This document shows positions 3,691 through 41,037 of a stretch of 64,000 bases of DNA, in pieces. A program made the position numbers and the translations under genes. Origin of the DNA: an uncultured bacterium. Lineage in GTDB: Bacteria > Desulfobacterota > Syntrophorhabdia > Syntrophorhabdales > JANXAF01. Position 1 is the stretch's first letter. Each line of letters starts with the position of its first letter. The notes beneath the pieces were generated by a model that was given only the letters and a program-made list of their open reading frames with translations, was not told the origin of the DNA and did no database searches. The DNA is taken from the NCBI GenBank assembly GCA_938084905.1, contig CALKEQ010000002.1, positions 11,129 through 75,128 of the forward strand, given 5' to 3'.

Positions 3691-3707
3691 AGAGACCCCC
3701 TTTGCTC

Positions 3708-3715
3708 TGTATACA
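3708..3715. promoter_or_regulatory. candidate GntR operator half of a repeated site (TGTATACA)
   Basis: Perfect 8-bp palindrome TGTATACA (context cTGTATACAAt), 18 nt upstream of the CoA-transferase start. It fits the GntR GT-Nx-AC operator rule, and a second copy lies 54 bp away. Confidence 0.35.
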
Positions 3716-3760
3716 ATTTTCCTTCACTATAATACTCGGAGCGGACGATTGTCAAGCTTT

Positions 3761-3770
3761 TTGTATACAA
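3761..3770. promoter_or_regulatory. candidate GntR operator (TTGTATACAA)
   Basis: Perfect 10-bp palindrome in the 178-bp divergent intergenic region. It has the same core as 3708..3715. Confidence 0.35.
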
Positions 3771-3868
3771 TCGCTTTAAGGTTAGTTGAGCACTAGAATA
3801 AGGGAAAAGTGAAATGAGAATACGGGTTTTTACGGATTGATCCCTAAGGAGCATGAGTTACCATATTA

Positions 3869-5953
3869 GTGATGCTTGAGAGAGGAATCAAAAAAACCCA
3901 GATCCTCGATAGAGCCCTCATCCCACCTTGCCAGGATGCGTGCCCCCTCCACCAGGATATAAGGGAATACGTTGACCTTATAGCCCAGGGAAGAATAATG
4001 GAAGCTCTAAAAGTGATAAGAGATAGAAATCCTTTTCCATCAATATGTGCCTATGTATGTCCACATAAATGCGAGGACAAGTGTCGCAGGGGAAGGGTGG
4101 ACAAACCTATAGCAATTAGAGCTCTTAAAAGATTCGCCGTTGAGTTCGGTGGGGACAGAATGGTCAGAAAGGAAGTGGAGGAAAGGTACTCTGAAAAAGT
4201 GGCTGTGATCGGTTCCGGTCCGGCAGGACTTTCCTGTGCTTACTACTTAAGAATTTTAGGTTATCCCGTAACAATATTTGAGGCTTACTCCGAGCCTGGA
4301 GGCATGTTAAGGGTCGGGATACCGGAGTTTAGACTTCCAAAGAAAATGCTCGACTTCGAAATAGAAAGGCTTGTGCAGATGGGTATAGAGATAAGGACAA
4401 ACACCCCTGTCACATCTCTCGATCTACTACTGGAAAAGGGATACAAAGCTATCTTTATAACTGTTGGGGCACATCAGGGAAGAAGGCTAGGGATAGAAGG
4501 CGAGGATGCAGAAGGAGTTATGGATGGGATATCCTTTCTCAGAGAGATAAATCTTGGCCTCAACCCGAAAATCAAGGATCGTGTGATTGTAGTTGGGGGT
4601 GGAGGAGTTGCAATGGATTGTGCGTTAGCCGCAGTACGGCTCGGAGCTAAGAAGGTTGACATCGTCTGCTTGGAAAAGAGAGAGGAAATGCCTGCAGGAA
4701 AGGAGGAGATTGAGTTCTGCGAGGAAGAGGGGGTGAAGATAAATCCAAGTTTTGGAGTAAAAAGAGTTATAAAGGAGGGAGGAAGGGTTGTCGGATTAGA
4801 ACTTGTAAGGTGCGTCTCTGTTTTTGACGAGAAGGGAAAGTTCAATCCAAAATTCGACGAATCGGAAAAAACCGTTATCTACGGAGATATGGTTATTTTT
4901 GCAGTAGGCCAGATGCCTAAAGTACCTGAGGAGTTCAACGTACACGTTGAAAGGGGAGGAACGATAAAGGTTGACCCTGTTACCCTGAGGACTAATAGGG
5001 AGGGGGTCTTTGCCGGTGGAGACGCTGTAACAGGTCCTGCTTCGGTTGTTGAGGCTTTGGCAACTGGTAAAAAGGCGGCAAAAAGGATTGATGATTACCT
5101 CCGCTATAGGTATCCTCTGGAGGAGACAGAAGAGAGACCGAAAATTGAACCGGAAATAAGGCAGAAGACTGTGGAAATGATAAGGAAGATTGAGAGAATC
5201 CAACCACCACTTAAGTCTGTAGAAGAAAGGATAGAAAGGTTTGAGCCTTTTGAGCTTGTTTACGACTGGGAAAGTGCGGTAAGGGAAGCAAAAAGGTGTC
5301 TAAGATGTGGGACAGGTGCTGAAATTTTCTACAAGGAAAAATGCGCAAGTTGCCTCACATGCGTCAGAGTTTGCCCTTATGGAGTTCCAGTTGTTGACGA
5401 GAAAGGTGAGATCGAGATTCCCCCTTCCGATTGTCTTGCGTGCGGCATCTGCGTAAGTGAGTGTCCTGCAAAAGCCATACTTTTGAGAAAGCCTGCGGAC
5501 AGGAGACAGGTAGATTTGGAGATTTCGGCTTTAGCGGGTGCGTCAAAAAAGGATGGTTCTCTCCACATAGTTGGTTTTGCGTGCCACTACGGTCTTTTTG
5601 GAGAGGGCAGTCTCTCTTACCTTTTCAGGACTCCAAAGGAGGGAATTTACATAGTACCGGTTCTCTGTATTGGAAAACTTGAAACAGAACACATACTTAA
5701 AGCATTCGAGCTTAAAGCTCAGGGCGTATTTATAGCCGGATGTGGAGAAGGTAGATGTGCAAGGGAGAACACAGACGCATTTGCAATAAGAAAAGCGGAA
5801 AGGGCAAAAAAGATACTTGAGAGACTCGGTCTTGAAAGGGAAAGAATAAGCGTTTTTACTGCCTCTGAGATGGACATCGAGAAAAAGCTTGAAATGTTCA
5901 TAGAAAGAATAGCCTCAATTATTCTGGAGAGGACCCTCAAGGAGGAGAAATGA
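3869..5953 (+). CDS. GltD/NfnB-like FAD/NAD(P)-dependent oxidoreductase fused to a 2x[4Fe-4S] ferredoxin domain and an MvhD/FlpD-like domain
   Basis: 694 aa. N-terminal Cys cluster (CQDACP...CAYVCPHKCEDKCRRG). Dinucleotide folds VAVIGSGPAGLSCAY and VIVVGGGGVAMDCA. CLRCGTGAE...CASCLTCVRVCPYG...CLACGICVSECPAKA. C-terminal HIVGFACHYG...VPVLCIGKLE...GVFIAGCGEGRCARENTD resembles the Mvh hydrogenase delta subunit. Start is GTG 3869 or ATG 3872. Confidence 0.8.
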   Translation: MMLERGIKKTQILDRALIPPCQDACPLHQDIREYVDLIAQGRIMEALKVIRDRNPFPSICAYVCPHKCEDKCRRGRVDKPIAIRALKRFAVEFGGDRMVRKEVEERYSEKVAVIGSGPAGLSCAYYLRILGYPVTIFEAYSEPGGMLRVGIPEFRLPKKMLDFEIERLVQMGIEIRTNTPVTSLDLLLEKGYKAIFITVGAHQGRRLGIEGEDAEGVMDGISFLREINLGLNPKIKDRVIVVGGGGVAMDCALAAVRLGAKKVDIVCLEKREEMPAGKEEIEFCEEEGVKINPSFGVKRVIKEGGRVVGLELVRCVSVFDEKGKFNPKFDESEKTVIYGDMVIFAVGQMPKVPEEFNVHVERGGTIKVDPVTLRTNREGVFAGGDAVTGPASVVEALATGKKAAKRIDDYLRYRYPLEETEERPKIEPEIRQKTVEMIRKIERIQPPLKSVEERIERFEPFELVYDWESAVREAKRCLRCGTGAEIFYKEKCASCLTCVRVCPYGVPVVDEKGEIEIPPSDCLACGICVSECPAKAILLRKPADRRQVDLEISALAGASKKDGSLHIVGFACHYGLFGEGSLSYLFRTPKEGIYIVPVLCIGKLETEHILKAFELKAQGVFIAGCGEGRCARENTDAFAIRKAERAKKILERLGLERERISVFTASEMDIEKKLEMFIERIASIILERTLKEEK

Positions 5954-6603
5954 TAGTTGCAACAAAAAAACCGATAGAGGAGATTTTAGTAGCTCTGGCT
6001 CCGTACGAGAGCGTTCTCATACTCGGATGCGGAACCTGCGTCACAGTCTGCAATGTGGGAGGTGAAAGGGAGGTCTCCCTTCTCCATTCCGCGTTGAGAG
6101 TTGCAATAGCGAACTCCTTGATGCAGCAAAAAAGATTTCACGAGTACACTGTGAAAAGGCAGTGTGACAGGGAATTTCTTGAGGCGCTAAAGGGAAAGTC
6201 TGAGGAGGTTGATGCGATTCTCTCCCTTGCCTGTGGGGTTGGGGTTCAGGTTCTTGCGGATTATTTCTCCGACATTCCATGTATTCCAGCTGTAAATACT
6301 GTCTTTATGGGTTCATCCTCTACATTTGGAATATGGGATGAAAGATGTGCCGGCTGTGGGGAATGTAGGCTTTATGAGACAGCTGGTATATGTCCTGTAA
6401 CGAGGTGTAACAAGGGGATCCTCAACGGACCATGTGGGGGAGCAAAAAACGGTAGATGTGAGGCAAATAAGGAGATGGATTGCGCATGGTTACTAATATA
6501 CGAGCGCCTACTCAAACTAGACCAGCTTGACCGTATGAGGAAATACTCTCCACCAAGAAATTACGGGAACCTAAAAAGACCGAAAAGGGTAATAATCACG
6601 TGA
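5950..6603 (+). CDS. metV: methylene-THF reductase FeS subunit MetV (copy 1)
   Basis: 217 aa. Cys-rich motifs GCGTCVTVC, CAGCGECRLYETAGICPVTRCNKGILNGPCGG, CEANKEMDCAW. ATGA overlap with the upstream gene. Followed by metF after 8 nt. Confidence 0.85.
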   Translation: MIVATKKPIEEILVALAPYESVLILGCGTCVTVCNVGGEREVSLLHSALRVAIANSLMQQKRFHEYTVKRQCDREFLEALKGKSEEVDAILSLACGVGVQVLADYFSDIPCIPAVNTVFMGSSSTFGIWDERCAGCGECRLYETAGICPVTRCNKGILNGPCGGAKNGRCEANKEMDCAWLLIYERLLKLDQLDRMRKYSPPRNYGNLKRPKRVIIT

Positions 6604-6611
6604 GGTAACCT

Positions 6612-7499
6612 ATGGCTGTCTCACTTTTTGAAGAAAAACTGAACTCTGATAAGTTTGTTGTAACAGCTGAGATCGGCCCACCAAAGGGAACGGATCTGAG
6701 TGAAATGAAAAAAAACATAGAACTACTTAAGGACAGAGTAGACGCACTAAATGTGACCGATCATCAGAGCTCTGTGATGAGGTATCCTTCCCTTGGAGGG
6801 TGTCTTCTCATAAAGGAACTAGGTGGGGAGCCTATCCTTCAGATGACAACAAGGGATAGGAATAGAATCGCCCTTCAGGCTGATCTCCTCTTCGCATATT
6901 CAAGGGGAATAAGGAACGTACTTTGTCTTACAGGAGATTCTGTGGATGTGGGTGACCATAAGGATGCAAAACCTGTCTTCGATCTCGATTCTGTCCAGCT
7001 AATAAGGATGATAAAGACACTTGAGACAGGTGTGGATATGGCTGGTAACAAACTCTCAGGCAAAGTTCAATTCTTTGTAGGTGCATCATGTAATCCTGAA
7101 GCGGACCATATAGAACCCCAGCTAATAAAGTTTGAGAAAAAGGTGAATTCAGGTGCCCGTTTCTTCCAGACCCAGGGGATATACGACGTCACTTTGCTTC
7201 GAAGATTCATGCAGTTCGCGAGGCAGTTTGGGGTGAAGATAATTGCGGGAATAATAGTTCTCTTCTCCTACAGGATGGCCACTTACATGAATGAAAATGT
7301 TCCGGGAGTTAAGGTACCTCCCCAAATCTTGGAGGAGCTTAAAGGCCTAGACAAAGAGGCGGCTTTGAGAAAAGGGATAGACATAGCTGCAAGAACTATA
7401 AGAACGATAAAAGAGGAGAAATTGTGTCACGGAGTTCACATAATGGCAATAGGCAGAGAGCATATAATACCGGAAGTTCTCGAAGCTTCCGGATTGTAA
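6612..7499 (+). CDS. metF: 5,10-methylenetetrahydrofolate reductase MetF (copy 1)
   Basis: 295 aa. VTAEIGPPKG, ALNVTDHQ, QMTTRDRNRIALQADL, NVLCLTGD are typical of MetF from MetVF-type enzymes. Confidence 0.9.
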   Translation: MAVSLFEEKLNSDKFVVTAEIGPPKGTDLSEMKKNIELLKDRVDALNVTDHQSSVMRYPSLGGCLLIKELGGEPILQMTTRDRNRIALQADLLFAYSRGIRNVLCLTGDSVDVGDHKDAKPVFDLDSVQLIRMIKTLETGVDMAGNKLSGKVQFFVGASCNPEADHIEPQLIKFEKKVNSGARFFQTQGIYDVTLLRRFMQFARQFGVKIIAGIIVLFSYRMATYMNENVPGVKVPPQILEELKGLDKEAALRKGIDIAARTIRTIKEEKLCHGVHIMAIGREHIIPEVLEASGL

Positions 7500-7511
7500 A
7501 AAGGAGGAACC

Positions 7512-8294
7512 ATGGAAAATAGAAAGAAAATAATGATCATTGACGATGAAAGGGAGTTCCTTGACGCTTTCAAGAGAACCTTAGAGGCTAGAGATTTCAC
7601 AGTTTTCGTAGCAACGAATAGGCGCGAGGCGGAGGAAATATTACTGAAAGAGGAACCCAATTTCGTTATTCTCGGAACGATAACCCCAAGAGGTGATGCC
7701 TTCCAATTGCACAGGTTCATAAGATCCAATCCTAGGCTTAAAGAGGTTCCCCTAATAATAGTCGATGCTCCTCTTGAGAGGAGGCTAGTTGAAGGATGGA
7801 GTATGGATGAAGGTATTCAGATGGACGCGGATGACTATTTGACGAAACCTATAGAGCCATCGGCTCTCATTCCAAGAATACTTGCTCTTCTCGAGAAGGC
7901 CACAAGAAGGATAAAGGTCCTTATAGTGGATGACCATACCGTTGTAAGGGATGGGATAAAGGTGGTACTCAAGCTTCAGAAGGACATAGAGGTCGTTGGA
8001 GAGGCTGAAAACGGAGAGGAGGCTGTTGAGAAGTGCTTGAGTCTTCAACCTGATGTGGTCATAATGGATATTGTCATGCCGGTTATGAATGGTCTTGAGG
8101 CAGCACGAAGGATTTTAAAGGAAAGGCCTGAAACAAAGGTTATAATGCTCACTCAGTACGACGATGAGGAAAACATCCTCATGGCGGAAAAGATTGGAGC
8201 CTACGGTTTTATTCCGAAAAGATCCGCTTCCGACAAACTTATATCAGGAATAAGACAGGTGTATATGGGTAAGCGACTGGAGCACGCTGCATAG
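7512..8294 (+). CDS. output-less tandem receiver protein (pseudo-REC + canonical NarL-type REC)
   Basis: 260 aa. REC1 has DD and K-P, but Gly (codon 7674..7676) replaces the phospho-acceptor Asp (PNFVILGTITP). REC2 is canonical (PDVVIMDIVMP). No DNA-binding domain. SD AAAGGAGG lies 12 nt after the metF stop. Confidence 0.85.
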   Translation: MENRKKIMIIDDEREFLDAFKRTLEARDFTVFVATNRREAEEILLKEEPNFVILGTITPRGDAFQLHRFIRSNPRLKEVPLIIVDAPLERRLVEGWSMDEGIQMDADDYLTKPIEPSALIPRILALLEKATRRIKVLIVDDHTVVRDGIKVVLKLQKDIEVVGEAENGEEAVEKCLSLQPDVVIMDIVMPVMNGLEAARRILKERPETKVIMLTQYDDEENILMAEKIGAYGFIPKRSASDKLISGIRQVYMGKRLEHAA

Positions 8295-8317
8295 GTATTG
8301 TTCGCTTGTGTAAAAGC

Positions 8318-8329
8318 TGGTAATATAAT
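8318..8329 (+). promoter_or_regulatory. possible internal promoter (extended -10 TGgTAATATAAT) for the kinase/regulator pair
   Basis: TG at 8318..8319 followed by TAATAT (8321..8326) and TATAAT (8324..8329) in the 51-nt gap before the kinase gene. GAGG lies 9 nt before TTG 8346. Confidence 0.3.
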
Positions 8330-8345
8330 TTAGAGGTAGTACATT

Positions 8346-9908
8346 TTGTACAATTTCTTGAATTTCATCGAGGATGAGGCATTCGTTATAAACGATTCTT
8401 ATAACATCACCTTCGCCAATGAGCCCCTGCTCAAGAGGATCCTCTCGGGAGAAGGTAGATGCTTTGAAAGAATAGAGGGAAGGGATTCTCCATGCGGTTT
8501 TCCTCTCTGGGAATGCCCTCTAAACAGGGTTATTCGGGAAAAAAGGTCATTTTCCCTTGTCCACCCCTATCCTTCAAACAACCGACCTGATCCCGTCTAC
8601 GTTAAGGTCTCAATACATCCCATCTCGGAGAATCAGTTTCTAGAAATAAGAAGGGACGTAAGTGCGGAAAGGAAACTGGAGAAACAGGTAATTCTCCATC
8701 ATAACCACCTTGATGCCATAAGCAAAATATCGTCAGCTGTAAGCGGGCTCAAGGATTTAAAAAAGGTATTGGAGATAGCAATTAACACGGTACTCGATAT
8801 ATTCACAGGATCAATAGGCGGAATCATGCTTCTCGATGAAAAGACAAAGGAGCTAAAATACGAGGTTTTAAGAGGTTTGTCGCTTGATGCTTTGGAGGGT
8901 AAAGGTGTGAAGATGGGGGAAGGGATCTCCGGAAAGGTTGCAATGGAAGGGAAACCTCTTCTTATCCCAGATCTGAAAAAAGACGAATTTCCCGGATCTA
9001 CGGTCTACGTTAAGGAGGGGATAAGGTCTCTTATAAGTGTACCTCTGAAAGCAAAGGAGAAAGTACTTGGGGTCTTAAACATAATGAGTAACATTCCAGG
9101 TAGGTTCAATAGGGAGGACATGTACCTTCTGTCTTCAGTTGGTCACCAGCTAGGTGTGGCTATGGAGCAGGCTACTCTTTACGAGAGACTAACAGCTGCA
9201 AGGGAAAGGTACAGAAAACTCCTTCAAGTAGCATTGGCAATTCAGGAAGAGGAAAGGAAAAGAATAGCAAGGGAGCTCCACGACGAGACGAGTCAAAATT
9301 TGACTGCAATTTCTCTTAACCTTCAGGCCATAAAGGAAATGATGGAGGACGAGGGTCTTACACAAGAGGTAAAGGAGCTCATCAGAAAATCCCACTCAAT
9401 AGCAGTTAGCGCAAGTGGAGAACTAACGAGAATAATAAGGGAGTTAAGACCTACCCTACTCGATACCCTCGGACTTCCTGCTGCTATAAATCACCTTGTC
9501 GAGTCTAATTTAAGATCGAGGAACATCGAGGCAGAAGTGCATTTTTCAGACCTTGGAGAAAGGCTTGCGCCCGAAATCGAGCTTGCCCTTTTTAGAATAA
9601 CGCAGGAGGCTCTCAGTAATATCGTGAGACACTCAAAGGCAAAAAGGGCAAGAATAACCTTTAGTTATGATGAGAAGGAGTACAGACTGAGGATAGAAGA
9701 CGATGGTATAGGTTTTAATGTGCAAGAGATTAAGACAATAGAGGAGGGCGGAAGGGGGGCTGGTTTATTCGGGATGAAGGAAAGGGTTAGGCTTGTTGGC
9801 GGACGGTGCCACATAGATTCAGGACCTGGAATGGGAACTCGAATAAACGTATACGTTCCAAGGGCTAAAATGGAAAGTGATGAGGAAGATAAGGGTACTA
9901 GTGGTTGA
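8346..9908 (+). CDS. sensor histidine kinase: Cys-containing PAS-like N-domain, GAF, HisKA_3, HATPase
   Basis: 520 aa with TTG start. GAF region (GGIMLLDEKTKEL...GEGISGKVAMEGKPLLIPDL...LISVPLKAKEKVLGVLNIMS). H-box RIARELHDETSQNL. ATPase boxes (NIVRHSKA, DDGIGF, GGRGAGLFGMKERV). Confidence 0.85.
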   Translation: MYNFLNFIEDEAFVINDSYNITFANEPLLKRILSGEGRCFERIEGRDSPCGFPLWECPLNRVIREKRSFSLVHPYPSNNRPDPVYVKVSIHPISENQFLEIRRDVSAERKLEKQVILHHNHLDAISKISSAVSGLKDLKKVLEIAINTVLDIFTGSIGGIMLLDEKTKELKYEVLRGLSLDALEGKGVKMGEGISGKVAMEGKPLLIPDLKKDEFPGSTVYVKEGIRSLISVPLKAKEKVLGVLNIMSNIPGRFNREDMYLLSSVGHQLGVAMEQATLYERLTAARERYRKLLQVALAIQEEERKRIARELHDETSQNLTAISLNLQAIKEMMEDEGLTQEVKELIRKSHSIAVSASGELTRIIRELRPTLLDTLGLPAAINHLVESNLRSRNIEAEVHFSDLGERLAPEIELALFRITQEALSNIVRHSKAKRARITFSYDEKEYRLRIEDDGIGFNVQEIKTIEEGGRGAGLFGMKERVRLVGGRCHIDSGPGMGTRINVYVPRAKMESDEEDKGTSG

Positions 9909-10524
9909 TGACCACACGATCGTTAGGGATGGTATAAAAACTCTTCTTGCCTTAAGCTCGGATATTGAGGTTGTTGGGGAGGCTGAGAACGGTCTTGAAG
10001 CCCAAAGAAAAGTAGGTGAGCTTAAGCCCAATGTGGTCCTTATGGACATATCTATGCCTGGAATAGATGGGATTGAGGCGGCGCGAGCAATAACATCCAA
10101 ATTCAAAGATGTAAAGGTGATAATGCTCACTCAGTACGAAGGAAAGGAAGATGTTCTGGAGGCGATAAAGGCGGGAGCAAAGGGTTTTATAAGTAAGAAG
10201 GCAGCCTCCACAGAACTTGTCCAGGCAGTAAGGGCAGTATCATCAGGAGGTGCGTACTTCTCTCCAGGTGTTGCAAAGATCTTGATGGATGAATGTATGG
10301 ATCTTATTAAAGAGAAGGCGCCCCATGAGATCCTCACACCGCGAGAGATAGAAATCTTAAAGCTCATAGGGGAGGGTTACTCTGACAAAGAAATAGCTCA
10401 GATCCTTTTTCTCTCTCCAAGAACAGTTGAGACGCATAAGGCTAAAATAATGGAAAAGCTCCACCTGAGAAAAAAGGTGGAGCTTATAAAATACGCTATA
10501 AAGAAGGGGATCGTTAAGCTCTAA
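9877..10524 (+). CDS. NarL/LuxR-family response regulator (REC + HTH)
   Basis: 215 aa. REC with PNVVLMDISMPGIDG. C-terminal LTPREIEILKLIGEGYSDKEIAQILFLSPRTVETHKAKIMEKL. Overlaps the kinase 3' end. Start is GTG 9877 or ATG 9880. Confidence 0.9.
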   Translation: MMRKIRVLVVDDHTIVRDGIKTLLALSSDIEVVGEAENGLEAQRKVGELKPNVVLMDISMPGIDGIEAARAITSKFKDVKVIMLTQYEGKEDVLEAIKAGAKGFISKKAASTELVQAVRAVSSGGAYFSPGVAKILMDECMDLIKEKAPHEILTPREIEILKLIGEGYSDKEIAQILFLSPRTVETHKAKIMEKLHLRKKVELIKYAIKKGIVKL

Positions 10525-11444
10525 AATTTAGGTCTTGGATAAAGACCTGCAGCCTGGACGATCTCGGGTACAGTCTCCTCCCACTCAATTGCCATTATGT
10601 GGACACCAGAAACCCCTTTTATCTCTTTGAGCTGATTTATTATATCGACACATATTCTTATCCCCTCTTTAGGTACCTGATCCTTAGGAACACCCTGAAG
10701 TCTCGTTATGATCTCGTCTGGAACATCCATCCCTGGGATCTTCGTTTTCATGTATTTTGCAGCACCCACAGACTTTATAGGCGCCACACCTGCAAGTATT
10801 TTTACCCTCTCATGGAGCCCGAGATCCCTTATTCTTCCCATCCACTCCTTAAACTTCTCAACGTTATAGACTATCTGGGTCTGTATAAAGTCTGCACCAG
10901 CTTCTATTTTTTTCTTCAGTCTTAAGACCCTGAATTCAAAAGGGTCAGCAAATGGGTTCTCAGCTGCTCCTATGAAAAGTCTCGGTTCGTAAGAGATTGG
11001 CTCTCCATTTTGAAATTTTCTCTCGTCCCTCATGTCCTTAACGATTTTTATCAGCTGGACAGAATCCACATCATAGACACCCTTTGCCTGAGGATGGTTT
11101 CCAAACTTCTGGTGATCACCTGTCAAGCAAAGAACGTTGTTTATACCAAGGGCCGCAATACCTAGTATATCCATTTGAAGAGCTATCCTGTTCCTGTCGC
11201 GACACGTCATTTGAACAATTGGATCTATCCCGTACTCCTTTCCAATCAGGCACGCAGCCCAGCTCGCCATTCTCACAACTGCCGTCTGACCGTCTGTTAC
11301 GTTGAAGGCATCAACGTATCCTGAAAGAACTTTTGCCTTCTTCCTTATAACTTCAGGATCTGCGCTCTGGGGAGGTCCAATCTCTGCAGTAACGGCAAAA
11401 TTCCCTCCCTCCAATACTCTTTCGAGATTACTTCTCGTTTTCAT
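10521..11444 (-). CDS. metF: 5,10-methylenetetrahydrofolate reductase MetF (copy 2)
   Basis: 307 aa. VTAEIGPPQS, AFNVTDGQ, QMTCRDRNRIALQMDI, NVLCLTGD. By eye roughly half the residues are identical to copy 1. Its stop codon overlaps the stop of the convergent regulator gene. Confidence 0.9.
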   Translation of the reverse strand: MKTRSNLERVLEGGNFAVTAEIGPPQSADPEVIRKKAKVLSGYVDAFNVTDGQTAVVRMASWAACLIGKEYGIDPIVQMTCRDRNRIALQMDILGIAALGINNVLCLTGDHQKFGNHPQAKGVYDVDSVQLIKIVKDMRDERKFQNGEPISYEPRLFIGAAENPFADPFEFRVLRLKKKIEAGADFIQTQIVYNVEKFKEWMGRIRDLGLHERVKILAGVAPIKSVGAAKYMKTKIPGMDVPDEIITRLQGVPKDQVPKEGIRICVDIINQLKEIKGVSGVHIMAIEWEETVPEIVQAAGLYPRPKF

Positions 11445-11454
11445 CTCCTACCTC

Positions 11455-12102
11455 CTAGAACCTTTTTACTGGTGGACCCGCAACAAGACTCACACTCCAG
11501 TCCTTTGGAGGAACGATCTTCTCCATTTTCTCGAGCCTTCCCAACTCCTTGAGCCTCTCGTAGATTAGGTGCCAGACACATGGGATTTCAGGGTCTACCT
11601 CACACTTTTTTCCCTGGGAGCCACCGCAAGGACCATTTAAGAGATGTTTTGAGCACCTAGATATGGGGCAGAGTCCTCCTGTGTATTCGAGGACGCAATT
11701 CCCACACTCCATACATCTTTCTGCTCCCTTCCATTCCGCATGGCCCCCTCCTGAGGAGACGGTATTACAACCTGGATGAACCATCTTTTTTACTAGCTCG
11801 GAGACAACCTGGACTCCGGCGCCGTCTGTGAATACAAGGATAGAGTCAGCCTCATCTATCTTTTTCTTGTAGTTTTTCAGCTTTAAGGCGGCAAGGGCTT
11901 TGTCGCAGAGCATGTCCACAAGAGCATACCCGGTCACAATTTTTCCACTTTCCTCAAGCCTTCTCTTCATTTCGATTATCTCTTTTTCCCCTCCACTCTC
12001 CCATCCTTCCGCACATCCCCTACATCCGACGAGAAAAACTTTACTCTCTCCATTAAGATAGCCCATTATCTCTTCAAAGGGTTTCTGTTTTGAGATAAGC
12101 AT
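11455..12102 (-). CDS. metV: methylene-THF reductase FeS subunit MetV (copy 2)
   Basis: 215 aa. GCRGCAEG, CMECGNCVLEYTGGLCPISRCSKHLLNGPCGG, CEVDPEIPCVW. Lies 12 nt after the hydrogenase large subunit and 10 nt before metF2. Both gaps contain GGAGG-type SDs. Confidence 0.85.
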   Translation of the reverse strand: MLISKQKPFEEIMGYLNGESKVFLVGCRGCAEGWESGGEKEIIEMKRRLEESGKIVTGYALVDMLCDKALAALKLKNYKKKIDEADSILVFTDGAGVQVVSELVKKMVHPGCNTVSSGGGHAEWKGAERCMECGNCVLEYTGGLCPISRCSKHLLNGPCGGSQGKKCEVDPEIPCVWHLIYERLKELGRLEKMEKIVPPKDWSVSLVAGPPVKRF

Positions 12103-12114
12103 CCCTTTCCTCCT

Positions 12115-13674
12115 TTATATAATACGAAAGACCTTTCCTTCCTTTCCGCGTGCATCTATTATGTGGATCGAACAGGCAAGGCAAGGGTCAAAGGATCTGA
12201 TCACTCTAACAATCTCAAATGGATTTTTCTCGTCTTTAACCTTCACTCCAATTAGTGCCTGTTCCATAGGACCTGGCTGGTCTTTATCGTCCTTTGGAGA
12301 AATATTCCATGTTGATGGGCTGATTACCTGGTAGTTCTCGATCTTCTTCTCTTTTATCTTTATCGCATGGCACAGCGCACCTCTAGCAGCCTCAACGAGT
12401 CCTATTCCTTCTGACTCATTAGGGATCTCGTAGGGAATGTAACTCGGTTCTCCGATCTTAAGGCTCAAGACCCATTCCTCCATTGCCTCTGCTAGAAGCT
12501 TAGTTTCTAAAGCCCTTGCAAGATGCCTTCCCATTGTGGAGAACATGTCTTGAGGCTTTAAGCCTACTTCGGATAATGCCCCATCTATAAGTTCTTTTAC
12601 CTTTTCATTCCCGTCTGCGTAATTGACCATCATCCTCGCAAGTGGACCAACCTCATAAACCATACCATCGTACCTTGGGGACTTGAGCCAGGAGTAAGCG
12701 AGAGACTTTTGAGCAACTGGAGCGGTAACCCCTTCCGTTGGATTTCTTCCGCTTGATGAGTCTTCGTAGAAAGAGTATTTCACATACTCGGCTATCTTTT
12801 GAGGATCAATCTCCTCATACTTGAGGCTTAAGGAAGTTCTACCCGCCTTGTGAAACCTCTTTCTTTTGATAAGATTTTTCTCTTTTCCATCAAGGTCGTA
12901 AGCTCCGTAAGAGAGAACCCTCCCGCATCCTTTACCGATCTGGAAGTAATCAGAATAAACCTTTGCGAGAGCAATAACATCCGGAATGTAAAAGTTCTCT
13001 ACGAAATCTCTGATTTCCCTTAATCTCCAAAGAAAATTTGAAATGCTGTCCACAGTTGGTACTGAGGCAACACCTCCTGGAAGCACACCCACATTATGAG
13101 GCATCTTCCCTCCGAAGATGGCCACCATCTCTTGCCCCTTCCTTCTCATGTGAAGGGCCTTTACATAGTGACTCACTAAAGCCTCGTTGATTTTGTCCGG
13201 AAGTCTGTAATCCCCTTCGTACCTCGGGACAAAAGGACCGAGCTCCCCCCTCTTTATGAAGTTCTTGATGGACAGAAGATCCTGATCATCTCCTTCGTAG
13301 TCCTTTATCCTTGTCACATCCACATAGTCTAGTGCACAGAGATGGTAAAAGTGGAGAATGTGGTCTGAAAGCTCTGCAGCACCAAGAATAAGATTCCTTA
13401 TGATTCTTCCATTATCTGGGATTTTGTCATCTATTCCAAAGGCACTATCCAGGTTCAATGCGGATGCCACTGCATGCGGAGCAGGACATACACCGCAGAC
13501 TCTCTGTGTGATTCTCTGGGCATCCCTAGGATCCCTTCCCTTCAGTATTATCTCCAAACCTCTAAAGAGCATACCAGAGCTTTTAGCATCGGTGACCACA
13601 CCATTTTCGATCTCCACTTCCACCTTTAGGTGGCCTTCTATCCTTGTAAGAGGATCTATTACTATCCTTCCCAT
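12115..13674 (-). CDS. [NiFe] hydrogenase large (catalytic) subunit
   Basis: 519 aa. N-terminal RIEGH and RVCGVCPAPH (RxCGxC). C-terminal DPCLACSIH followed by a 15-aa tail, the substrate of a maturation endopeptidase. Confidence 0.92.
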   Translation of the reverse strand: MGRIVIDPLTRIEGHLKVEVEIENGVVTDAKSSGMLFRGLEIILKGRDPRDAQRITQRVCGVCPAPHAVASALNLDSAFGIDDKIPDNGRIIRNLILGAAELSDHILHFYHLCALDYVDVTRIKDYEGDDQDLLSIKNFIKRGELGPFVPRYEGDYRLPDKINEALVSHYVKALHMRRKGQEMVAIFGGKMPHNVGVLPGGVASVPTVDSISNFLWRLREIRDFVENFYIPDVIALAKVYSDYFQIGKGCGRVLSYGAYDLDGKEKNLIKRKRFHKAGRTSLSLKYEEIDPQKIAEYVKYSFYEDSSSGRNPTEGVTAPVAQKSLAYSWLKSPRYDGMVYEVGPLARMMVNYADGNEKVKELIDGALSEVGLKPQDMFSTMGRHLARALETKLLAEAMEEWVLSLKIGEPSYIPYEIPNESEGIGLVEAARGALCHAIKIKEKKIENYQVISPSTWNISPKDDKDQPGPMEQALIGVKVKDEKNPFEIVRVIRSFDPCLACSIHIIDARGKEGKVFRII

Positions 13675-14538
13675 TTATACCTCCTTCGGAAATTGGGCTT
13701 CTTCTATTTTCACGTAAAGGGGTGAAACTTCGTCAAGGAAACCTTCTGAACAGCATCCTATACATGTGGATCCACATCCGACGCACCAGTTGACCTTGCC
13801 ATTCCAAAGTCTAATTGGACAATCGGCGTATGTTACTGGACCTCTACATCCAAGTTCGTAAAGGCAGCCAGGATCACCGAATTTCTTTGCAAATTTCTTT
13901 TCATCGTAATAGGCCCTTCTTGGGCAGTTTTCATGTATTGTCTGAGAAAAAAAGAGCTTTGGTCGACGAAGTTCATCAAGATCCTCCTCTTTCGGAAGTC
14001 CAAATAGCAAAACACTTGCGACTGTTCCAACGAACCAGTCAGGATGGGGAGGACATCCGGGGATATTTATATAAGGTGTTTTTATTCCGTATTCCTCAAG
14101 AACCTCCCCGACCGATTTGCAACCTGTTGGGTTGGGATTCCCCTTCGGTATACCTCCGAATGATGCACAGGACCCAAAAGCGATAACACAAAGGGCTGAA
14201 GAAGATAGATCCAAAATCCAGGAGAGCATAGTTATCGGTTTTTTGTCCCTTTCCCCAATAACCCCGTATATTCCATTATCCTTCGTGGGAATTGCCCCTT
14301 CGACGATCAAGACGTATCCCTTTTCCCTTTTAGTACTTGATAGAACCTCAAGGATTGCCTCTCCCTGTCCTGCCATTATGTTTGGATGGAATCTGAGATT
14401 CACATGTTTTTCTGGGACTACCTCGTCTATTAACAAATTTTTGATATTCGGGTAATCTGCGTTGAGGACCGAGATGGAGCAACCCGTGCAACCTGCAGCC
14501 TGGATCCATATTGCAGGAAGCTCAGTTACTTTTCCCAT
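13675..14538 (-). CDS. [NiFe] hydrogenase small subunit, no twin-arginine signal (cytoplasmic)
   Basis: 287 aa. Proximal-cluster Cys (AAGCTGCS, GSCASFGG, PGCPPHPDW). Medial/distal motifs (HENCPRR, GCLYELGCRGP, CPIRLWN, WCVGCGSTCIGC). The N-terminus MGKVTELPAIW has no RRxFxK. Confidence 0.92.
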   Translation of the reverse strand: MGKVTELPAIWIQAAGCTGCSISVLNADYPNIKNLLIDEVVPEKHVNLRFHPNIMAGQGEAILEVLSSTKREKGYVLIVEGAIPTKDNGIYGVIGERDKKPITMLSWILDLSSSALCVIAFGSCASFGGIPKGNPNPTGCKSVGEVLEEYGIKTPYINIPGCPPHPDWFVGTVASVLLFGLPKEEDLDELRRPKLFFSQTIHENCPRRAYYDEKKFAKKFGDPGCLYELGCRGPVTYADCPIRLWNGKVNWCVGCGSTCIGCCSEGFLDEVSPLYVKIEEAQFPKEV

Positions 14539-14582
14539 TTTTTCCTCCTTTAGACTGGTTGAATTACCTGGACGGCCGTCAA

Positions 14583-14612
14583 ATGTTATGCCACGTGGTG
14601 GTTTTTTGTCAA
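14583..14612 (-). promoter_or_regulatory. sigma70-like promoter of the hydS-hydL-metV-metF operon (TTGACA-N18-TAACAT)
   Basis: On the reverse strand, TTGACA lies at plus 14607..14612 and TAACAT at plus 14583..14588. The spacer contains the palindrome CCACGTGG (14591..14598). The palindrome GACGGCCGTC (14571..14580) lies in the predicted leader. SD AAGGAGG at 14544..14550. Confidence 0.4.
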
Positions 14613-14645
14613 GAAAAATGTAAAAAAAAGAACTATAATAGAAGA

Positions 14646-15740
14646 GTGGGAACTTGTATCCTTTGCGGAAAAACCGGGAAAGATATCTCCTCTTTCCTCC
14701 GTCTATGTAAAGCCTGTATCATCACAAAGGAAAATGAGTCTTATACCTTGATACAGATGGCCCACAGAGAATCGAGAAAGAGATTCGGCCTGCCTGAAGA
14801 ACCGCCAAAATCTGAAGGTGGTATTAAGTGCGCAATGTGTGTAAACGAATGTAGAATCGGTGAAAATGAGAGGGGATATTGTGGGTTAAGGGAAAGGATC
14901 GGAAATACCTTAAGTTACATGAAGGATTTTGCCAGTCTCCACTTTTACTACGATCCCCTTCCCACAAACTGCGTAGCGGACTGGGTCTGTGCTGGCGGAA
15001 CAGGAAGCGGATATCCTCAATTCTCCTACAGGAAGGGACCCGAATATGGATACAAAAATCTGGCAGTCTTCTTTCTAGCATGCTCTTTCAACTGTCTTTT
15101 CTGCCAGAATTGGCACTTTAGACTTGAAACAAAAAAAGGGATAAAATACACGAAAGAGGAACTTCTCCAAGCTATAGACGATAATACATCTTGCATCTGT
15201 TTTTTCGGTGGAGATCCTTCCTGTCAGCTTACGTACGCAATAGATTTTTCAAAACTTGCCCTTCAAAGGAAAAAAAACAAAATACTTAGGATCTGTTTCG
15301 AAACTAACGGCTCAATGGACCCTAATCTCCTCGATAGCGCCTTCCAAATTTCGCTTGAGAGTGGAGGTTGCATAAAGTTCGATTTAAAGGCCTACGATAG
15401 AAGAGTTCACGAGGCACTGACCGGATTCGGGAATGAAAGAACCCTCGATAACTTCCTTCGCGTTGCAAAAAAGTCGAAACTTCGACCAAACCCCCCTCCT
15501 GTTGTTGCAAGTACGCTAATTGTACCGGGATACGTGGAGGAGGATGAAGTGGCCTCTATAGCCAGGTTCATAGCTCAAATAAATCCCGATATTCCTTATG
15601 CGCTTCTGGCCTATTACCCTCACTTTCACATGAAGGACCTCCCCTTCGTGACAAGGGAAATGGCTAATAGATGCCTTGAGGCTGCAAAGAGGGAAGGTTT
15701 AAGAAAAGTAAGAGTTGGAAATGTCCATCTAATCGTTTAA
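14646..15740 (+). CDS. radical SAM enzyme, PflA-like (AmmeMemoRadiSam-type signature) with N-terminal CxxC...CxxC extension
   Basis: CSFNCLFCQNWHF (CxxxCxxC with the FCQNW signature) and the upstream KCAMCVNECRIGENERGYCGLRE cluster. The start is uncertain: GTG 14646 (6 nt after TATAAT 14634..14639) or ATG 14757. The track start, TTG 14511, would overlap the hydrogenase gene and its promoter. Confidence 0.75.
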   Translation: MGTCILCGKTGKDISSFLRLCKACIITKENESYTLIQMAHRESRKRFGLPEEPPKSEGGIKCAMCVNECRIGENERGYCGLRERIGNTLSYMKDFASLHFYYDPLPTNCVADWVCAGGTGSGYPQFSYRKGPEYGYKNLAVFFLACSFNCLFCQNWHFRLETKKGIKYTKEELLQAIDDNTSCICFFGGDPSCQLTYAIDFSKLALQRKKNKILRICFETNGSMDPNLLDSAFQISLESGGCIKFDLKAYDRRVHEALTGFGNERTLDNFLRVAKKSKLRPNPPPVVASTLIVPGYVEEDEVASIARFIAQINPDIPYALLAYYPHFHMKDLPFVTREMANRCLEAAKREGLRKVRVGNVHLIV

Positions 15741-38204: not shown

Positions 38205-38666
38205 ATGGGAGGAAAGAAAGCAGTTGTTTTAGGAGTTGGAAATTTACTCCTCTCTGATGAAGGGGTTGGAATCCATGTGGTCAAAGAACTGATGGAAATG
38301 GATCTTCCTCCAGGTGTCTCAGTTGTGGATGGAGGTACTCATGGATTCGGACTCTTAGACTTCATAACAGATGCGGACCGCTTGATCATAATAGATGCGG
38401 TAAAAGGAGGGGGAGAACCGGGAACAGTATACACTTTTAAAATAGATAATCTTGAAAACCACATTGGAGAAATAAAACTATCCGTTCATCAGTTTGGCAT
38501 CCTAGAGATGTTAAATCTTGCTACCCTCTTTGGAAGAGTTCCGGAAACGACTGTAATTGGAATTGAACCTAAATCAGTAGATTTCGGGACGGAACTCTCA
38601 TACGAAGTAAGGAGTAAGATACATAAGGTGATAGAGCTTGTTATGGAGGAACTCAAGAATAAGTAG
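38205..38666 (+). CDS. [NiFe] hydrogenase maturation endopeptidase (HybD/HoxM/HycI family)
   Basis: 153 aa. VLGVGNLLLSDEGVGIHVV, IIIDAV, HQ motifs. Starts 2 nt after the ExeA-like gene. Confidence 0.88.
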   Translation: MGGKKAVVLGVGNLLLSDEGVGIHVVKELMEMDLPPGVSVVDGGTHGFGLLDFITDADRLIIIDAVKGGGEPGTVYTFKIDNLENHIGEIKLSVHQFGILEMLNLATLFGRVPETTVIGIEPKSVDFGTELSYEVRSKIHKVIELVMEELKNK

Positions 38667-38907: not shown

Positions 38908-41037
38908 CTATCCTCTAATTCTTTCAACCCTTCTTACCCCTTTTACCTTCATTATTTCCTTTATCATCGTGTTTAGCTGAGAAAGGTTTTCTATCTCAAC
39001 CTCGTAAATACCGACGGCAGTTTTGTCGGGATTGGTTGTTGTATAAGCATTTACTATGTTGACTTTATTCTGGCTTATTACCGTACTTATGTCAGACAGA
39101 AGCCCTTTTCTGTCCATTCCGTATACCTTCAATTTGACTGGATAGGTCTTCCCCTCCTGACCATTCCATATTACCTCCACCTTCCTCTGTTCATCGTACG
39201 TGTGGACATTAGGACAGTCCTCACTGTGGATTGTAAGGCCCCTTCCCCTTGTTATGAAGCCGAAAATTCTATCTCCGGGAATAGGGTTACAACATTTGGC
39301 AAATCTGACGACAAGCCCATCAACCCCCTCTACCTTTACGCGCGTTTCCCCTCCCTTCGTTACTTTTCTTACAAGCCTTTTCAGAGTACTCTGTTTTTGG
39401 ACCTCAGGGATGAACTTCCCAAGTACCTGTAAGGGTGTGTAGAGACCGTACCCTACTGCGGCAAAGAGATCCTCAGTTTTCTCAAAACCAAACTCTCTTG
39501 CAACTTCCTCCAGCTCTCCGTTTTTCACAATCCTTGAAAGACTGATGCCCCTTTTTGTACTCTCCTTCTCCAGTAGCTCCTTTCCAAGCTGAATACTCCT
39601 CTCCCTCTGTTTCGCTTTAAGAAACTGGCGAATTTTAGTTTTCGCCCTTGAGGTCTTAACAAATGTCAACCAGTCCTTGCTAGGTGTCTGCGAGGGCGAT
39701 GTGAGTATCTCAACTGTATCTCCACTTTTCAGTTTGTACCTTAAGGGAACGAGCCTTCCATTTACCTTAGCTCCCACGCAGTGGTGTCCTAGCTCGGTGT
39801 GGATGGCGTAAGCAAAATCAACAGGTGTAGAATCTTTTGGCAATTCCTTCACTTCACCCTTTGGAGTGAAAACGTATATCTCTTCAGGAAAGAGATCTTG
39901 AGCAAAAACCTCCATTATTTCCTTTCCATCTTTAAGTTCACTTATAGACTCAATGGTTCTTCTAAGCCAGGAGAAAAGCTTCCCCTCCTTTGAATCGAAA
40001 GGCTTCCCCTCCTTATACTTCCAGTGAGCTGCAATCCCTTCCTCCGCCACCCGGTGCATCTCGTACGTCCTTATCTGAACCTCAATTTTTTCCCCGTGTA
40101 GTCCAATAACCTTCGTATGGAGGGACTGGTACATGTTTGACTTTGGCATGTATATGTAATCTGTGAATTTACCAGGGATGGGCTTGAAAATGGAGTGGAT
40201 TATTCCTAGAGCCAAATAGCATTCCTTAACTGTGTTGACGAGAACCCTGAAAGCAATAAGATCATAGATCTCGTCAATATCCTTATTTTCCTGAATCATC
40301 TTCCTATAGATGCTGTAAACCCTCTTTGCCCTTCCCTGTATTTCAGCTTTAAGCCCGTACTGGTCAAATTTCTCTTTTAGAACTTCTATCACCTCTTTTA
40401 TGTAGTTTTCCCTTTCGCTTCTCGTCTTCTGAAGCTTCGTCACAATCTCCCTGTACTCTTTTGGATGAAGGTATTTGAAAGCCAAATCTTCCAGTTCTCC
40501 CTTTAACCATTCAATACCCAACCTGTGGGCGAGAGGTGCGTATATTTCAAGGGTCTCTTTGGCTATCTCAATTTGCTTCTCCCATGGGACGAAGTTTAGG
40601 GTCTGCATGTTGTGGTATCTGTCAGCTAGCTTTATCAATACAACCCTTATATCCTTTCCCATCGCAAGGATCATTTTCCTCAAAGTTTCGGCCCTTACAT
40701 CCTCATCAGGCCTCACCTGAATTTTTGAAAACTTTGTTACTCCGTCAACGAGGGAGGCAATTTCACTACCAAATTTCTCTTCCAGATCTTCCTTTTTTGT
40801 GTCTGTGTCCTCCAATGTATCGTGTAAAAGACCGGCTATAATCGTTGGAAGGTCCAGGTTCATTTTTGCCAAGATATGGGCAACAGCTAATGGATGGACA
40901 AGGTAAGGTTCGCCTGATAGTCTGGTTTTTCCCTTATGTGCCTGGGCTGAAAATATGTAGGCTTTTTTGAGTAAGTCTAGATCAGCCTGGGGATTGTACT
41001 TCTCTATCTCTTCAACTATGTCATTAAATCTGACCAT
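38908..41037 (-). CDS. rel: bifunctional (p)ppGpp synthetase/hydrolase (RelA/SpoT homologue)
   Basis: 709 aa with HD, RelA_SpoT, TGS and ACT domains. HD hydrolase motif (HPLAVAHIL...LHDTLEDT), synthetase region (RAKRVYSIYRKM...YQSLHT). Confidence 0.93.
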   Translation of the reverse strand: MVRFNDIVEEIEKYNPQADLDLLKKAYIFSAQAHKGKTRLSGEPYLVHPLAVAHILAKMNLDLPTIIAGLLHDTLEDTDTKKEDLEEKFGSEIASLVDGVTKFSKIQVRPDEDVRAETLRKMILAMGKDIRVVLIKLADRYHNMQTLNFVPWEKQIEIAKETLEIYAPLAHRLGIEWLKGELEDLAFKYLHPKEYREIVTKLQKTRSERENYIKEVIEVLKEKFDQYGLKAEIQGRAKRVYSIYRKMIQENKDIDEIYDLIAFRVLVNTVKECYLALGIIHSIFKPIPGKFTDYIYMPKSNMYQSLHTKVIGLHGEKIEVQIRTYEMHRVAEEGIAAHWKYKEGKPFDSKEGKLFSWLRRTIESISELKDGKEIMEVFAQDLFPEEIYVFTPKGEVKELPKDSTPVDFAYAIHTELGHHCVGAKVNGRLVPLRYKLKSGDTVEILTSPSQTPSKDWLTFVKTSRAKTKIRQFLKAKQRERSIQLGKELLEKESTKRGISLSRIVKNGELEEVAREFGFEKTEDLFAAVGYGLYTPLQVLGKFIPEVQKQSTLKRLVRKVTKGGETRVKVEGVDGLVVRFAKCCNPIPGDRIFGFITRGRGLTIHSEDCPNVHTYDEQRKVEVIWNGQEGKTYPVKLKVYGMDRKGLLSDISTVISQNKVNIVNAYTTTNPDKTAVGIYEVEIENLSQLNTMIKEIMKVKGVRRVERIRG

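Follow-up and report, generated by a model that had tools for sequence, protein, structure and literature searches.

Two MetVF modules at one locus

The DNA analysed here (the window, 64 kb, C2:11129-75128) comes from an uncultured member of the Desulfobacterota, whose genome (G000) was assembled to 1.54 Mb in 16 contigs and is 98% complete. Between positions 3869 and 14538 of the window lie two methylenetetrahydrofolate (methylene-THF) reductases (MTHFRs) of the MetVF type, each encoded together with its own electron-input module, and a two-component system located between them. An initial annotation, made from the letters of the DNA, had described ten genes in this region. All ten open reading frames (ORFs) were present at the coordinates and on the strands that it gave, and its labels agreed with the domains that were called from Pfam and NCBIfam profiles:

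3869-5953, plus strand: electron-input flavoprotein, 694 amino acids (aa), with Fer4_20 and Pyr_redox_2 (GltD/NfnB-like, for FAD and NAD(P)H), a 2x[4Fe-4S] ferredoxin domain and a C-terminal FlpD/MvhD ([2Fe-2S]) domain
5950-6603, plus strand: MetV1, flavoprotein-type iron-sulfur subunit (PF12225, E 4e-35)
6612-7499, plus strand: MetF1, methylene-THF reductase catalytic subunit, clade B (PF02219, E 3.6e-40, full profile length)
7512-8294, plus strand: tandem receiver (REC-REC) protein, output-less, with two Response_reg domains and no output domain
8346-9908, plus strand: soluble sensor histidine kinase with GAF, HisKA_3 (E 7.6e-14) and HATPase_c (E 3e-17)
9877-10524, plus strand: NarL/LuxR-type response regulator with REC (E 6.8e-31) and a GerE helix-turn-helix (E 1.7e-19)
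10521-11444, minus strand: MetF2, catalytic subunit of the hydrogenase-linked module, clade A (PF02219, E 2.7e-44, full profile length)
11455-12102, minus strand: MetV2, hydrogenase-type iron-sulfur subunit (PF12225, E 2.5e-34)
12115-13674, minus strand: HydL, [NiFe] hydrogenase large subunit, group-1a-like (NF033181, 720 bits against a cut-off of 600)
13675-14538, minus strand: HydS, [NiFe] hydrogenase small subunit (Pfam)

The six genes on the plus strand are referred to as unit 1 and the four on the minus strand as unit 2, and the enzymes that they encode as modules 1 and 2. Inside each operon the genes were spaced by 0-12 nt or overlapped, with the sole exception of 51 nt ahead of the kinase gene; the flavoprotein gene and metV1 overlapped by 4 nt, and the metV-to-metF gaps were 8 and 10 nt. 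The coupling of the REC-REC gene to metF1 across 12 nt was found as annotated, with the metF1 stop codon (TAA) at 7497-7499 followed by aaaggaggaacc, which contains AAAGGAGG, and the ATG at 7512. The same was true for the overlapping stop codons at the junction of the two units, where the TAA of the regulator gene (10522-10524) and the TAG of metF2 (10521-10523, reverse strand) had two bases in common. In pairwise comparison the MetV copies were 35% identical and the MetF copies 44% identical, in agreement with the roughly 35-50% that had been estimated by eye. No further MetV, MetF or true [NiFe] hydrogenase was found in the 1.54-Mb genome beyond these two MetV, two MetF and one HydSL.

An NfnB-like flavoprotein as the input of module 1

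The flavoprotein scored 489 bits with the PRK12771 model (NfnB/GltD), compared to 109 bits with HdrA2, the latter over the C-terminal part only. Both dinucleotide motifs were visible (VAVIGSGPAG and VIVVGGGGVA). The FlpD/MvhD domain covered residues 567-677 (E 5.7e-19) and also matched 5odc_D; the PDB matches of the flavoprotein were chains of the StnA/NfnB type (9bov, 9n5u, 8oh5, 4ylf and 5jca) and MvhD (5odc). A CCG (HdrB) domain was not found in any of the ten genes.

Both MetV copies contained the LNGPCGG motif, and eight C-terminal cysteines were invariant in the 100 MetVs from the fetched loci. The N-terminal cysteines varied with the partner. In flavoprotein-linked MetVs the pattern was C27, C30, C34, C72 and C95 (11 out of 11 aligned sequences, MetV1 included), and in hydrogenase-linked MetVs, the type to which MetV2 belongs, C27, C30 and C66 were present in 75 out of 75 aligned sequences and C112 in 66 of them, with Cys or Asp at position 93. 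These partner-dependent patterns would fit an electron entry that is specific for each partner. No relative of MetV2 was found by sequence among solved structures. At one locus from the Dehalococcoidia (L089:9032-11128), an NfnB-like domain, ferredoxin, MvhD and MetV were joined in a single 698-aa protein, followed by a GAF kinase and metF; this natural fusion argues for a complex between the flavoprotein and MetV.

A predicted cytoplasmic [NiFe] hydrogenase as the input of module 2

The N-terminus of HydS, MGKVTELPAIWIQAAGCTGC (MGKVTELPAIW in the longest ORF), carried no twin-arginine translocation (Tat) signal or RRxF motif, an extension of the ORF upstream was impossible, and the alignment to the NCBIfam model started at model position ~40-50. 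Because HydS lacks both a Tat signal and a membrane anchor, the hydrogenase is predicted to be cytoplasmic. The Tat signal was absent in every MetV-linked HydS that could be scored (~90), compared to an RRxFLK motif in 11 out of 11 unlinked homologues. Three of the MetV-linked HydS proteins had a chance RR in a possible upstream extension, without a hydrophobic stretch.

The best PDB relatives of HydL were periplasmic group 1a [NiFeSe] and [NiFe] hydrogenases, and group 3c Mvh-type models failed (VhuA, 114 bits against a cut-off of 800; VhuG, 28.5 bits against 450). The Ni-binding residues were invariant in 12 sequences (R58, C60, G61, V62 and C63 in RxCGVC; D496, P497, C498, C501 and H504 in DPCxxCxxH), and the C-terminal extension for processing by a protease was intact. 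HydSL resembles its closest structural-sequence relatives, the group 1a enzymes Hys of Desulfovibrio vulgaris and that of Desulfomicrobium baculatum (5jsu, 1cc1), in the Ni motifs, the FeS domains of HydS, the C-terminal extension and the HycI protease. In contrast to these enzymes, it lacks a Tat signal as well as any cytochrome or membrane partner, contains Cys rather than selenocysteine, and is always encoded with MetVF. The sole gene for the protease in the genome was found 24 kb from hydSL:

38205-38666, plus strand: HycI-type hydrogenase maturation endopeptidase (PF01750, E 7.5e-32)

In most other phyla hycI was placed between hydL and metV. Just downstream of the lone hycI gene in the window were a RelA/SpoT homologue and a fusion of REC with adenylate/guanylate cyclase (38908-42007). 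Kinases with a domain that binds cyclic nucleotide monophosphates were observed inside hydrogenase-metVF clusters of other phyla.

The link between this hydrogenase and MetVF was conserved. In a sample of 401 genomes of the phylum, metV-metF was adjacent in 16 of the 19 loci with a HydL of at least 57% identity, the other three being cut by contig ends, and no metV-metF was found beside HydL relatives of 53% identity or less. A second scan, with one genome per species, gave 80 loci at 59-84% HydL identity, and metV/metF adjoined hydSL in ~75 of them, with the rest truncated. The 80 loci came mostly from Dehalococcoidia and Anaerolineae and also from Syntrophaceae, Desulfobacteraceae, Thermodesulfovibrionales/Nitrospirota and Actinomycetota; altogether the cassette was present at ~100 loci in Chloroflexota, Desulfobacterota, Nitrospirota and Actinomycetota. 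In a group of Dehalococcoidia loci (L070-L085 and L116; for example L073:2387-5070), genes for a NuoF-like protein and a CbiA/MinD-like ATPase often preceded hydSL, a DUF3786 gene followed metF, and some loci had two tandem metV genes.

The two-component system goes with the flavoprotein unit

Three genomes of the family were compared (G000, G001 and G002), and G093 was included as a member of another family, f50. The whole arrangement was present in synteny in G001, which belongs to a second genus of the family. In G002 the gene order was CoA-transferase, metF2-metV2-hydL-hydS and radical SAM, and there was no second MetV anywhere in the genome. The spacer of 684 nt between the CoA-transferase gene and metF2 (L026:10777-11460) contained decayed pieces of the flavoprotein gene as well as a stretch matching the final 70 codons of the NarL gene, which was interrupted by in-frame stops (75% identity at the nucleotide level, E 2.6e-24). 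These relics of both ends of the block indicate that the six-gene block was ancestral and that it was deleted in G002 while unit 2 was kept.

Orthologues of MetF1 with 61-73% identity were found in many families of the Desulfobacterota, almost always behind a flavoprotein and a MetV, and REC, REC and kinase genes followed in ~18 of 28 such loci. In G093 the six genes were arranged as kinase-NarL-flavoprotein-MetV-MetF-REC-REC (45-73% identity) and were located on a different contig from the hydL-metV-metF-hycI cassette of the same genome. Because the six genes recur in f50 unlinked to the hydrogenase cassette and were lost as a block in G002, the two-component system is best assigned to unit 1 and not to a hub shared by both units. 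The initial annotation had described two MetVF pairs with different electron inputs that converge on an embedded two-component system. Its first half agrees with the domains, which identify an NfnB/GltD flavoprotein and a [NiFe] hydrogenase, but the shared hub does not agree with the unlinked unit in f50 and the lost block in G002. It had also pointed to related genomes as a place to look for the same arrangement, and this was intact in G001, reduced in G002 and split into separate units in f50.

Signalling proteins of unit 1

The first receiver of the REC-REC protein, REC1, was a pseudo-receiver in which Gly replaces the phospho-acceptor Asp (VILGTITP), and this Gly was conserved in G000, G001, G093 and G403. 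REC2 was canonical (VVIMD), and the protein terminates after REC2. The best matches of REC1 were stand-alone receivers that follow metF in clusters of Chloroflexota, Nitrospirota and other Desulfobacterota (62-87 bits, compared to 36-55 bits for REC2); these stand-alone receivers keep the phospho-acceptor Asp. REC2 and the receiver of the NarL regulator were close paralogues with 53-56% identity. From this identity and the adjacency of the genes, we infer that the kinase phosphorylates both REC2 and the NarL regulator.

The kinase had no hydrophobic segment and is therefore soluble. Its N-terminus gave a weak, full-length match to PAS_4 (E 0.045, below the threshold), and three cysteines (C39, C50 and C57) recurred in the G001 and G093 orthologues, in the pattern C-x10/11-C-x6-CPL. 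In NreB of Staphylococcus carnosus, four PAS cysteines ligate a [4Fe-4S] cluster, and there is no GAF domain. The pair described here is similar to NreB-NreC in that a NarL-type regulator is combined with a HisKA_3 kinase that is soluble and has cysteines in a PAS-like sensor domain, but the kinase has three conserved cysteines, followed by a GAF domain. For the REC-REC protein the nearest parallel was DrdR of Xanthomonas campestris, a pseudo-REC and REC protein with no output domain that binds and modulates enzymes (PMC13507683). By its description, DrdR shares the N-terminal pseudo-receiver, the functional C-terminal receiver and the missing output domain, and a similar mechanism would be an analogy. 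The targets of DrdR are pilus ATPases and not redox enzymes, and REC1 differs in that it comes from a receiver family tied to metF.

Promoters, a candidate regulator site and a likely terminator

Four regulatory features were listed at the locus:

3691-3868: divergent intergenic region between the CoA-transferase operon (minus strand) and the module 1 operon (plus strand), with two TGTATACA palindromes and a conserved box
3815-3840, plus strand: conserved box TGAGaATACGGGTTTTTACGGATTGA containing TACGGGT-N3-TACGGAT, candidate cis element of the module 1 operon
14583-14612, minus strand: sigma-70-like promoter TTGACA-N18-TAACAT of the hydS-hydL-metV2-metF2 operon (scanner match 10/12)
10456-10485, minus strand: hairpin with an 11-bp stem within the 3' end of the regulator gene, followed on the minus strand by UUUUCCAUUAUUUU (U-run); RNA fold z-score -3.7

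The TGTATACA palindromes, at ~3708-3715 and 3762-3769 and thus 54 bp apart, were conserved in G000, G001 and G002. They were rejected as operators of module 1, since they persist in G002, which is without module 1. A link to the CoA-transferase/GntR side is the better fit, and they are probably operators of the divergent CoA-transferase/GntR/MeaB operon. The box at 3815-3840 was identical between G000 and G001 at 25 of 26 positions in an otherwise diverged spacer and was absent in G002. It was the only promoter element common to just the two genomes that carry the block, and none was found at the hydrogenase promoter; the box is possibly a site for the NarL regulator. The core TACGG-N5-TACGG was tried as a motif of a genome-wide regulon and rejected (3 hits compared to 2.1 expected, none of them at the hydrogenase promoter). 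The intergenic region of the G093 unit was different and had GGGATTTCC-like repeats.

The core of the hydrogenase promoter was conserved in G000, in G001 and also in G002, which has no two-component system, and a comparison across them revealed no element specific to the carriers of this system. Two palindromes at this promoter in G000, CCACGTGG and GACGGCCGTC, were not conserved in G001 or G002 and were rejected as regulator sites.

The hairpin at 10456-10485 is the likely intrinsic terminator of the hydrogenase-MetVF operon. It was retained in the G002 relic, and although it folds well, it was not listed by a scanner for consensus terminators. With a terminator inside the NarL gene, an overlap of ~65-70 nt or more is expected between the 3' ends of the two mRNAs. 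Its position within the retained part may explain why the NarL relic of G002 has survived.

A resident unit and a cassette probably acquired from another phylum

The MetF tree showed two deep clades with 100/100 support, with MetF1 in clade B and MetF2 in clade A. MetF1 grouped with Desulfobacterota orthologues. MetF2 fell within the hydrogenase-linked MetFs of Dehalococcoidia (73-81% identity), and the MetF2 and HydL proteins of the family were nested inside Dehalococcoidia (support 95-99), apart from other Desulfobacterota. In a FastTree phylogeny of 112 HydL sequences, the 101 that were MetVF-linked lay on one side of a single branch (SH-like support 92). HydL, HydS, MetV2 and MetF2 were 67-81% identical to their counterparts in Dehalococcoidia (L070-L085), compared to 50-63% for HydL, HydS and MetV2 against homologues of the same phylum, where the hydrogenase-adjacent MetFs belonged to the other MetF clade. 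This suggests that the hydrogenase-MetVF cassette was acquired horizontally, between phyla. The supposed paralogue pairs look like a resident unit and a horizontally acquired cassette. A recent duplication within this lineage, which had already been discounted in the initial annotation, was ruled out by the identities, the deep MetF clades and the different neighbours in the trees.

A proposed default hydrogen route and a proposed signal-controlled NAD(P)H route

The model that we lean towards is a default H2-linked MTHFR next to a signal-controlled NAD(P)H-linked MTHFR, without a reciprocal toggle. In module 2, the FeS chain of HydS would pass electrons from H2 to MetV2 and then to the flavin of MetF2, giving an H2:methylene-THF oxidoreductase, which would be expressed from a strong, conserved sigma-70-type promoter that apparently works without the two-component system. 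In module 1, the NfnB-like flavoprotein with its ferredoxin and MvhD domains would feed MetV1 and MetF1; the donor would be NAD(P)H, possibly with electron bifurcation to ferredoxin. The soluble kinase, with its Cys-PAS/GAF sensor, would respond to an intracellular redox or metabolite cue and phosphorylate the two paralogous receivers. The NarL regulator would then auto-regulate the module 1 operon at the box at 3815-3840, and the pseudo-receiver REC1 would act on the reductase complex by protein contact. The hydrogen route would thus be the default, and the NAD(P)H route would be added or tuned on a signal.

Several observations weigh against this model. Support for the box at 3815-3840 comes from only two genomes, and its core pattern occurs about as often as chance predicts. 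In other phyla, kinase and receiver genes are often placed inside the hydrogenase operon itself, as in hydS-hydL-hycI-metV-HK-metF-REC-REC, where HK is the kinase gene, and therefore signalling genes are not exclusive to flavoprotein modules in general. Among 54 loci outside the family with at least 5 kb downstream of hydL, kinase/receiver genes were present in 14 of 15 clusters with two metF genes and in 10 of 39 with a single metF (Fisher p = 7e-6; the loci are related and represent roughly seven lineages). This enrichment leaves some coordination of the two modules plausible. Finally, the one-carbon (C1) metabolism of the host offers little guidance on the substrate flow, or even on the physiological direction, of the two modules. 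The genome encodes serine hydroxymethyltransferase and all ten genes of the locus are intact, but FolD, Fhs, ACS/CdhC, an AcsE-like or MetH pterin-binding methyltransferase, the MetH S-methyltransferase domain, MetE and MtrH were not detected in the assembly (98% complete). G001 and G002 carried an acs/fhs cluster of 16.5 kb and, elsewhere, unlinked C1 genes; no orthologue of any of these was found in G000. Likewise, G000 lacked two loci from other G001 contigs, a pterin-binding gene (285 aa) and a weak MetE-like gene. An assembly gap is an unlikely cause of the absent Wood-Ljungdahl genes, although a lost contig is conceivable.

The initial annotation had proposed a switch that selects an NAD(P)H-type or an H2-type donor for the same reduction step. 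In this reciprocal form, the two-component system would pick one of the two modules through NarL at both promoters, or through convergent transcription and the antisense 3' overlap. The tail-to-tail layout is conserved in two genera, and the overlapping stops together with the terminator inside the regulator gene provide the predicted overlap of the mRNAs. The enrichment of signalling genes in two-metF clusters points in the same direction, and the joint loss of the two-component system and module 1 in G002 would fit a regulator that becomes dispensable once a single option is left. However, in f50 the six genes and the hydrogenase cassette are on different contigs, the enrichment is inflated by related genomes, and the hydrogenase promoter has no carrier-specific element: it is unchanged in G002 without the two-component system, and its palindromes in G000 are not conserved. 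A reciprocal switch was thus unsupported, and we regard it as unlikely. A control at the protein level, in which REC1 binds the MetVF complex or the input subunit and kinase-phosphorylated REC2 gates the electron entry, would set the donor choice or bifurcation post-translationally, beside the transcriptional control by NarL. This more specific proposal is drawn from the origin of REC1 in the metF-following receivers and is rather unlikely in our view.

Two further explanations dispense with a choice between donors. The locus could be an incidental juxtaposition, in which an acquired hydrogenase-MetVF cassette landed beside a resident, sensor-linked MetVF operon without any functional or regulatory tie. 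This would agree with the separate origins of MetF1 and of HydL and MetF2 in the trees, with the unlinked units in f50, and with the loss of unit 1 alone in one genus (G002). Yet in at least seven separate lineages of Chloroflexota and Desulfobacterota, hydSL is found clustered with two metVF sets, a flavoprotein-MvhD gene and kinase or receiver genes, which is hard to ascribe to chance and makes this explanation improbable. At the other extreme, all parts could form one redox machine. In Mvh-Hdr, MvhD bridges a [NiFe] hydrogenase to a bifurcating flavoprotein. If the MvhD domain of the flavoprotein, which matches 5odc, docked to HydSL, the only [NiFe] hydrogenase in the genome, then H2, NAD(P)(H), ferredoxin and methylene-THF could be coupled in a bifurcating or confurcating complex or in a methylene/methyl-THF redox loop. 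Such a loop would explain why both modules persist without a recognisable consumer of methyl-THF, and a cluster in Anaerolineales has flavoprotein, metV, hydSL, kinase, metF, REC, REC, metV and metF genes in one direction. A single machine is difficult to reconcile with G002, which keeps hydSL-metVF without the flavoprotein, and with f50, which has the units on separate contigs. In addition, Moorella-type MetFV-Hdr-MvhD complexes use MvhD without a hydrogenase (PMC8515935), and we consider a single machine quite improbable. The model with a default hydrogen route and a signal-controlled NAD(P)H route is compatible with both the co-loss in G002 and the separate units in f50.

Comparison with known methylene-THF reductases

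The published MTHFR classes are the E. coli-type, 2S, 3S and 6S enzymes and a speculative 'X' type with NuoEFG, and neither of the input types described here is included among them (PMC8515935). The characterised 2S MetFV enzymes, from Clostridium ljungdahlii, C. formicoaceticum and Thermoanaerobacter kivui, draw electrons from free reduced ferredoxin (PMC8515935). Both modules are similar to the 2S enzymes in that a MetV, with NGPCGG and the eight invariant C-terminal cysteines, is encoded directly upstream of MetF, and methylene-THF reduction is presumed. They are unlike the 2S enzymes in that each MetVF is encoded with its own input module and the N-terminal Cys pattern of MetV varies with the partner.

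The closest parallel to module 1 was the 6S-type MetFV-HdrABC-MvhD of Moorella thermoacetica (Mock et al. 2014, as related in PMC8515935 and PMC5736913). As far as the complex is outlined there, module 1 similarly joins MetVF, an MvhD domain and an FeS flavoprotein for flavin adenine dinucleotide and pyridine nucleotide, which makes an NAD(P)H-driven and possibly bifurcating mechanism plausible. Measured against the same outline, module 1 differs in that its flavoprotein is NfnB/GltD-like and not HdrA, with MvhD and ferredoxin fused in and neither HdrB nor HdrC present, and in that its unit also encodes a kinase, NarL regulator and REC-REC protein.

Sewell et al. 2017 (PMC5736913) reported an hdrABC-mvhD-metVF cluster from marine Anaerolineae with two metVF sets (~41-43% similar) and a flanking 'phoBR' that was left uninterpreted. 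That cluster also has two diverged metV/metF sets and a two-component system beside one metF. However, no hydrogenase was reported there, and its kinase is of the HisKA (PhoR-like) type, compared to HisKA_3, NarL and the fused pseudo-REC/REC at our locus. We found no paper on an H2-dependent MTHFR in the literature; for metVF with NiFe there was one remark in passing, on an uncharacterised group 1a HysAB that adjoins MetVF in Candidatus Bipolaricaulia (PMC11287216). Both unit types are already recurrent in public metagenome-assembled genomes, and the literature contains passing mentions of them.

Within the Wood-Ljungdahl pathway, methylene-THF reduction is the step whose electron donor and energy coupling are least settled, and at this locus two additional types of input occur next to each other in a single small genome. 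With a cytoplasmic [NiFe] hydrogenase, H2 (E0' -414 mV) would serve directly as the reductant for the -200 mV couple. Bifurcation would be possible for the NfnB-type NAD(P)H module, whose unit also includes its own sensor kinase, DNA-binding regulator and output-less receiver protein. If the model is correct, many uncultured anaerobes of the Desulfobacterota and Chloroflexota would control a central C1 redox step in response to a signal. The locus provides a compact gene set for direct biochemical testing.

Neighbouring genes

On the hydrogenase side, an ORF for an activase-like radical SAM protein, listed at 14511-15740, overlaps the start of hydS. Its homologues align only from residue 23-32, and the true start is probably at ~14577-14606. 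The radical SAM gene and the subsequent BioF/Kbl-like gene were syntenic in all three genomes of the family.

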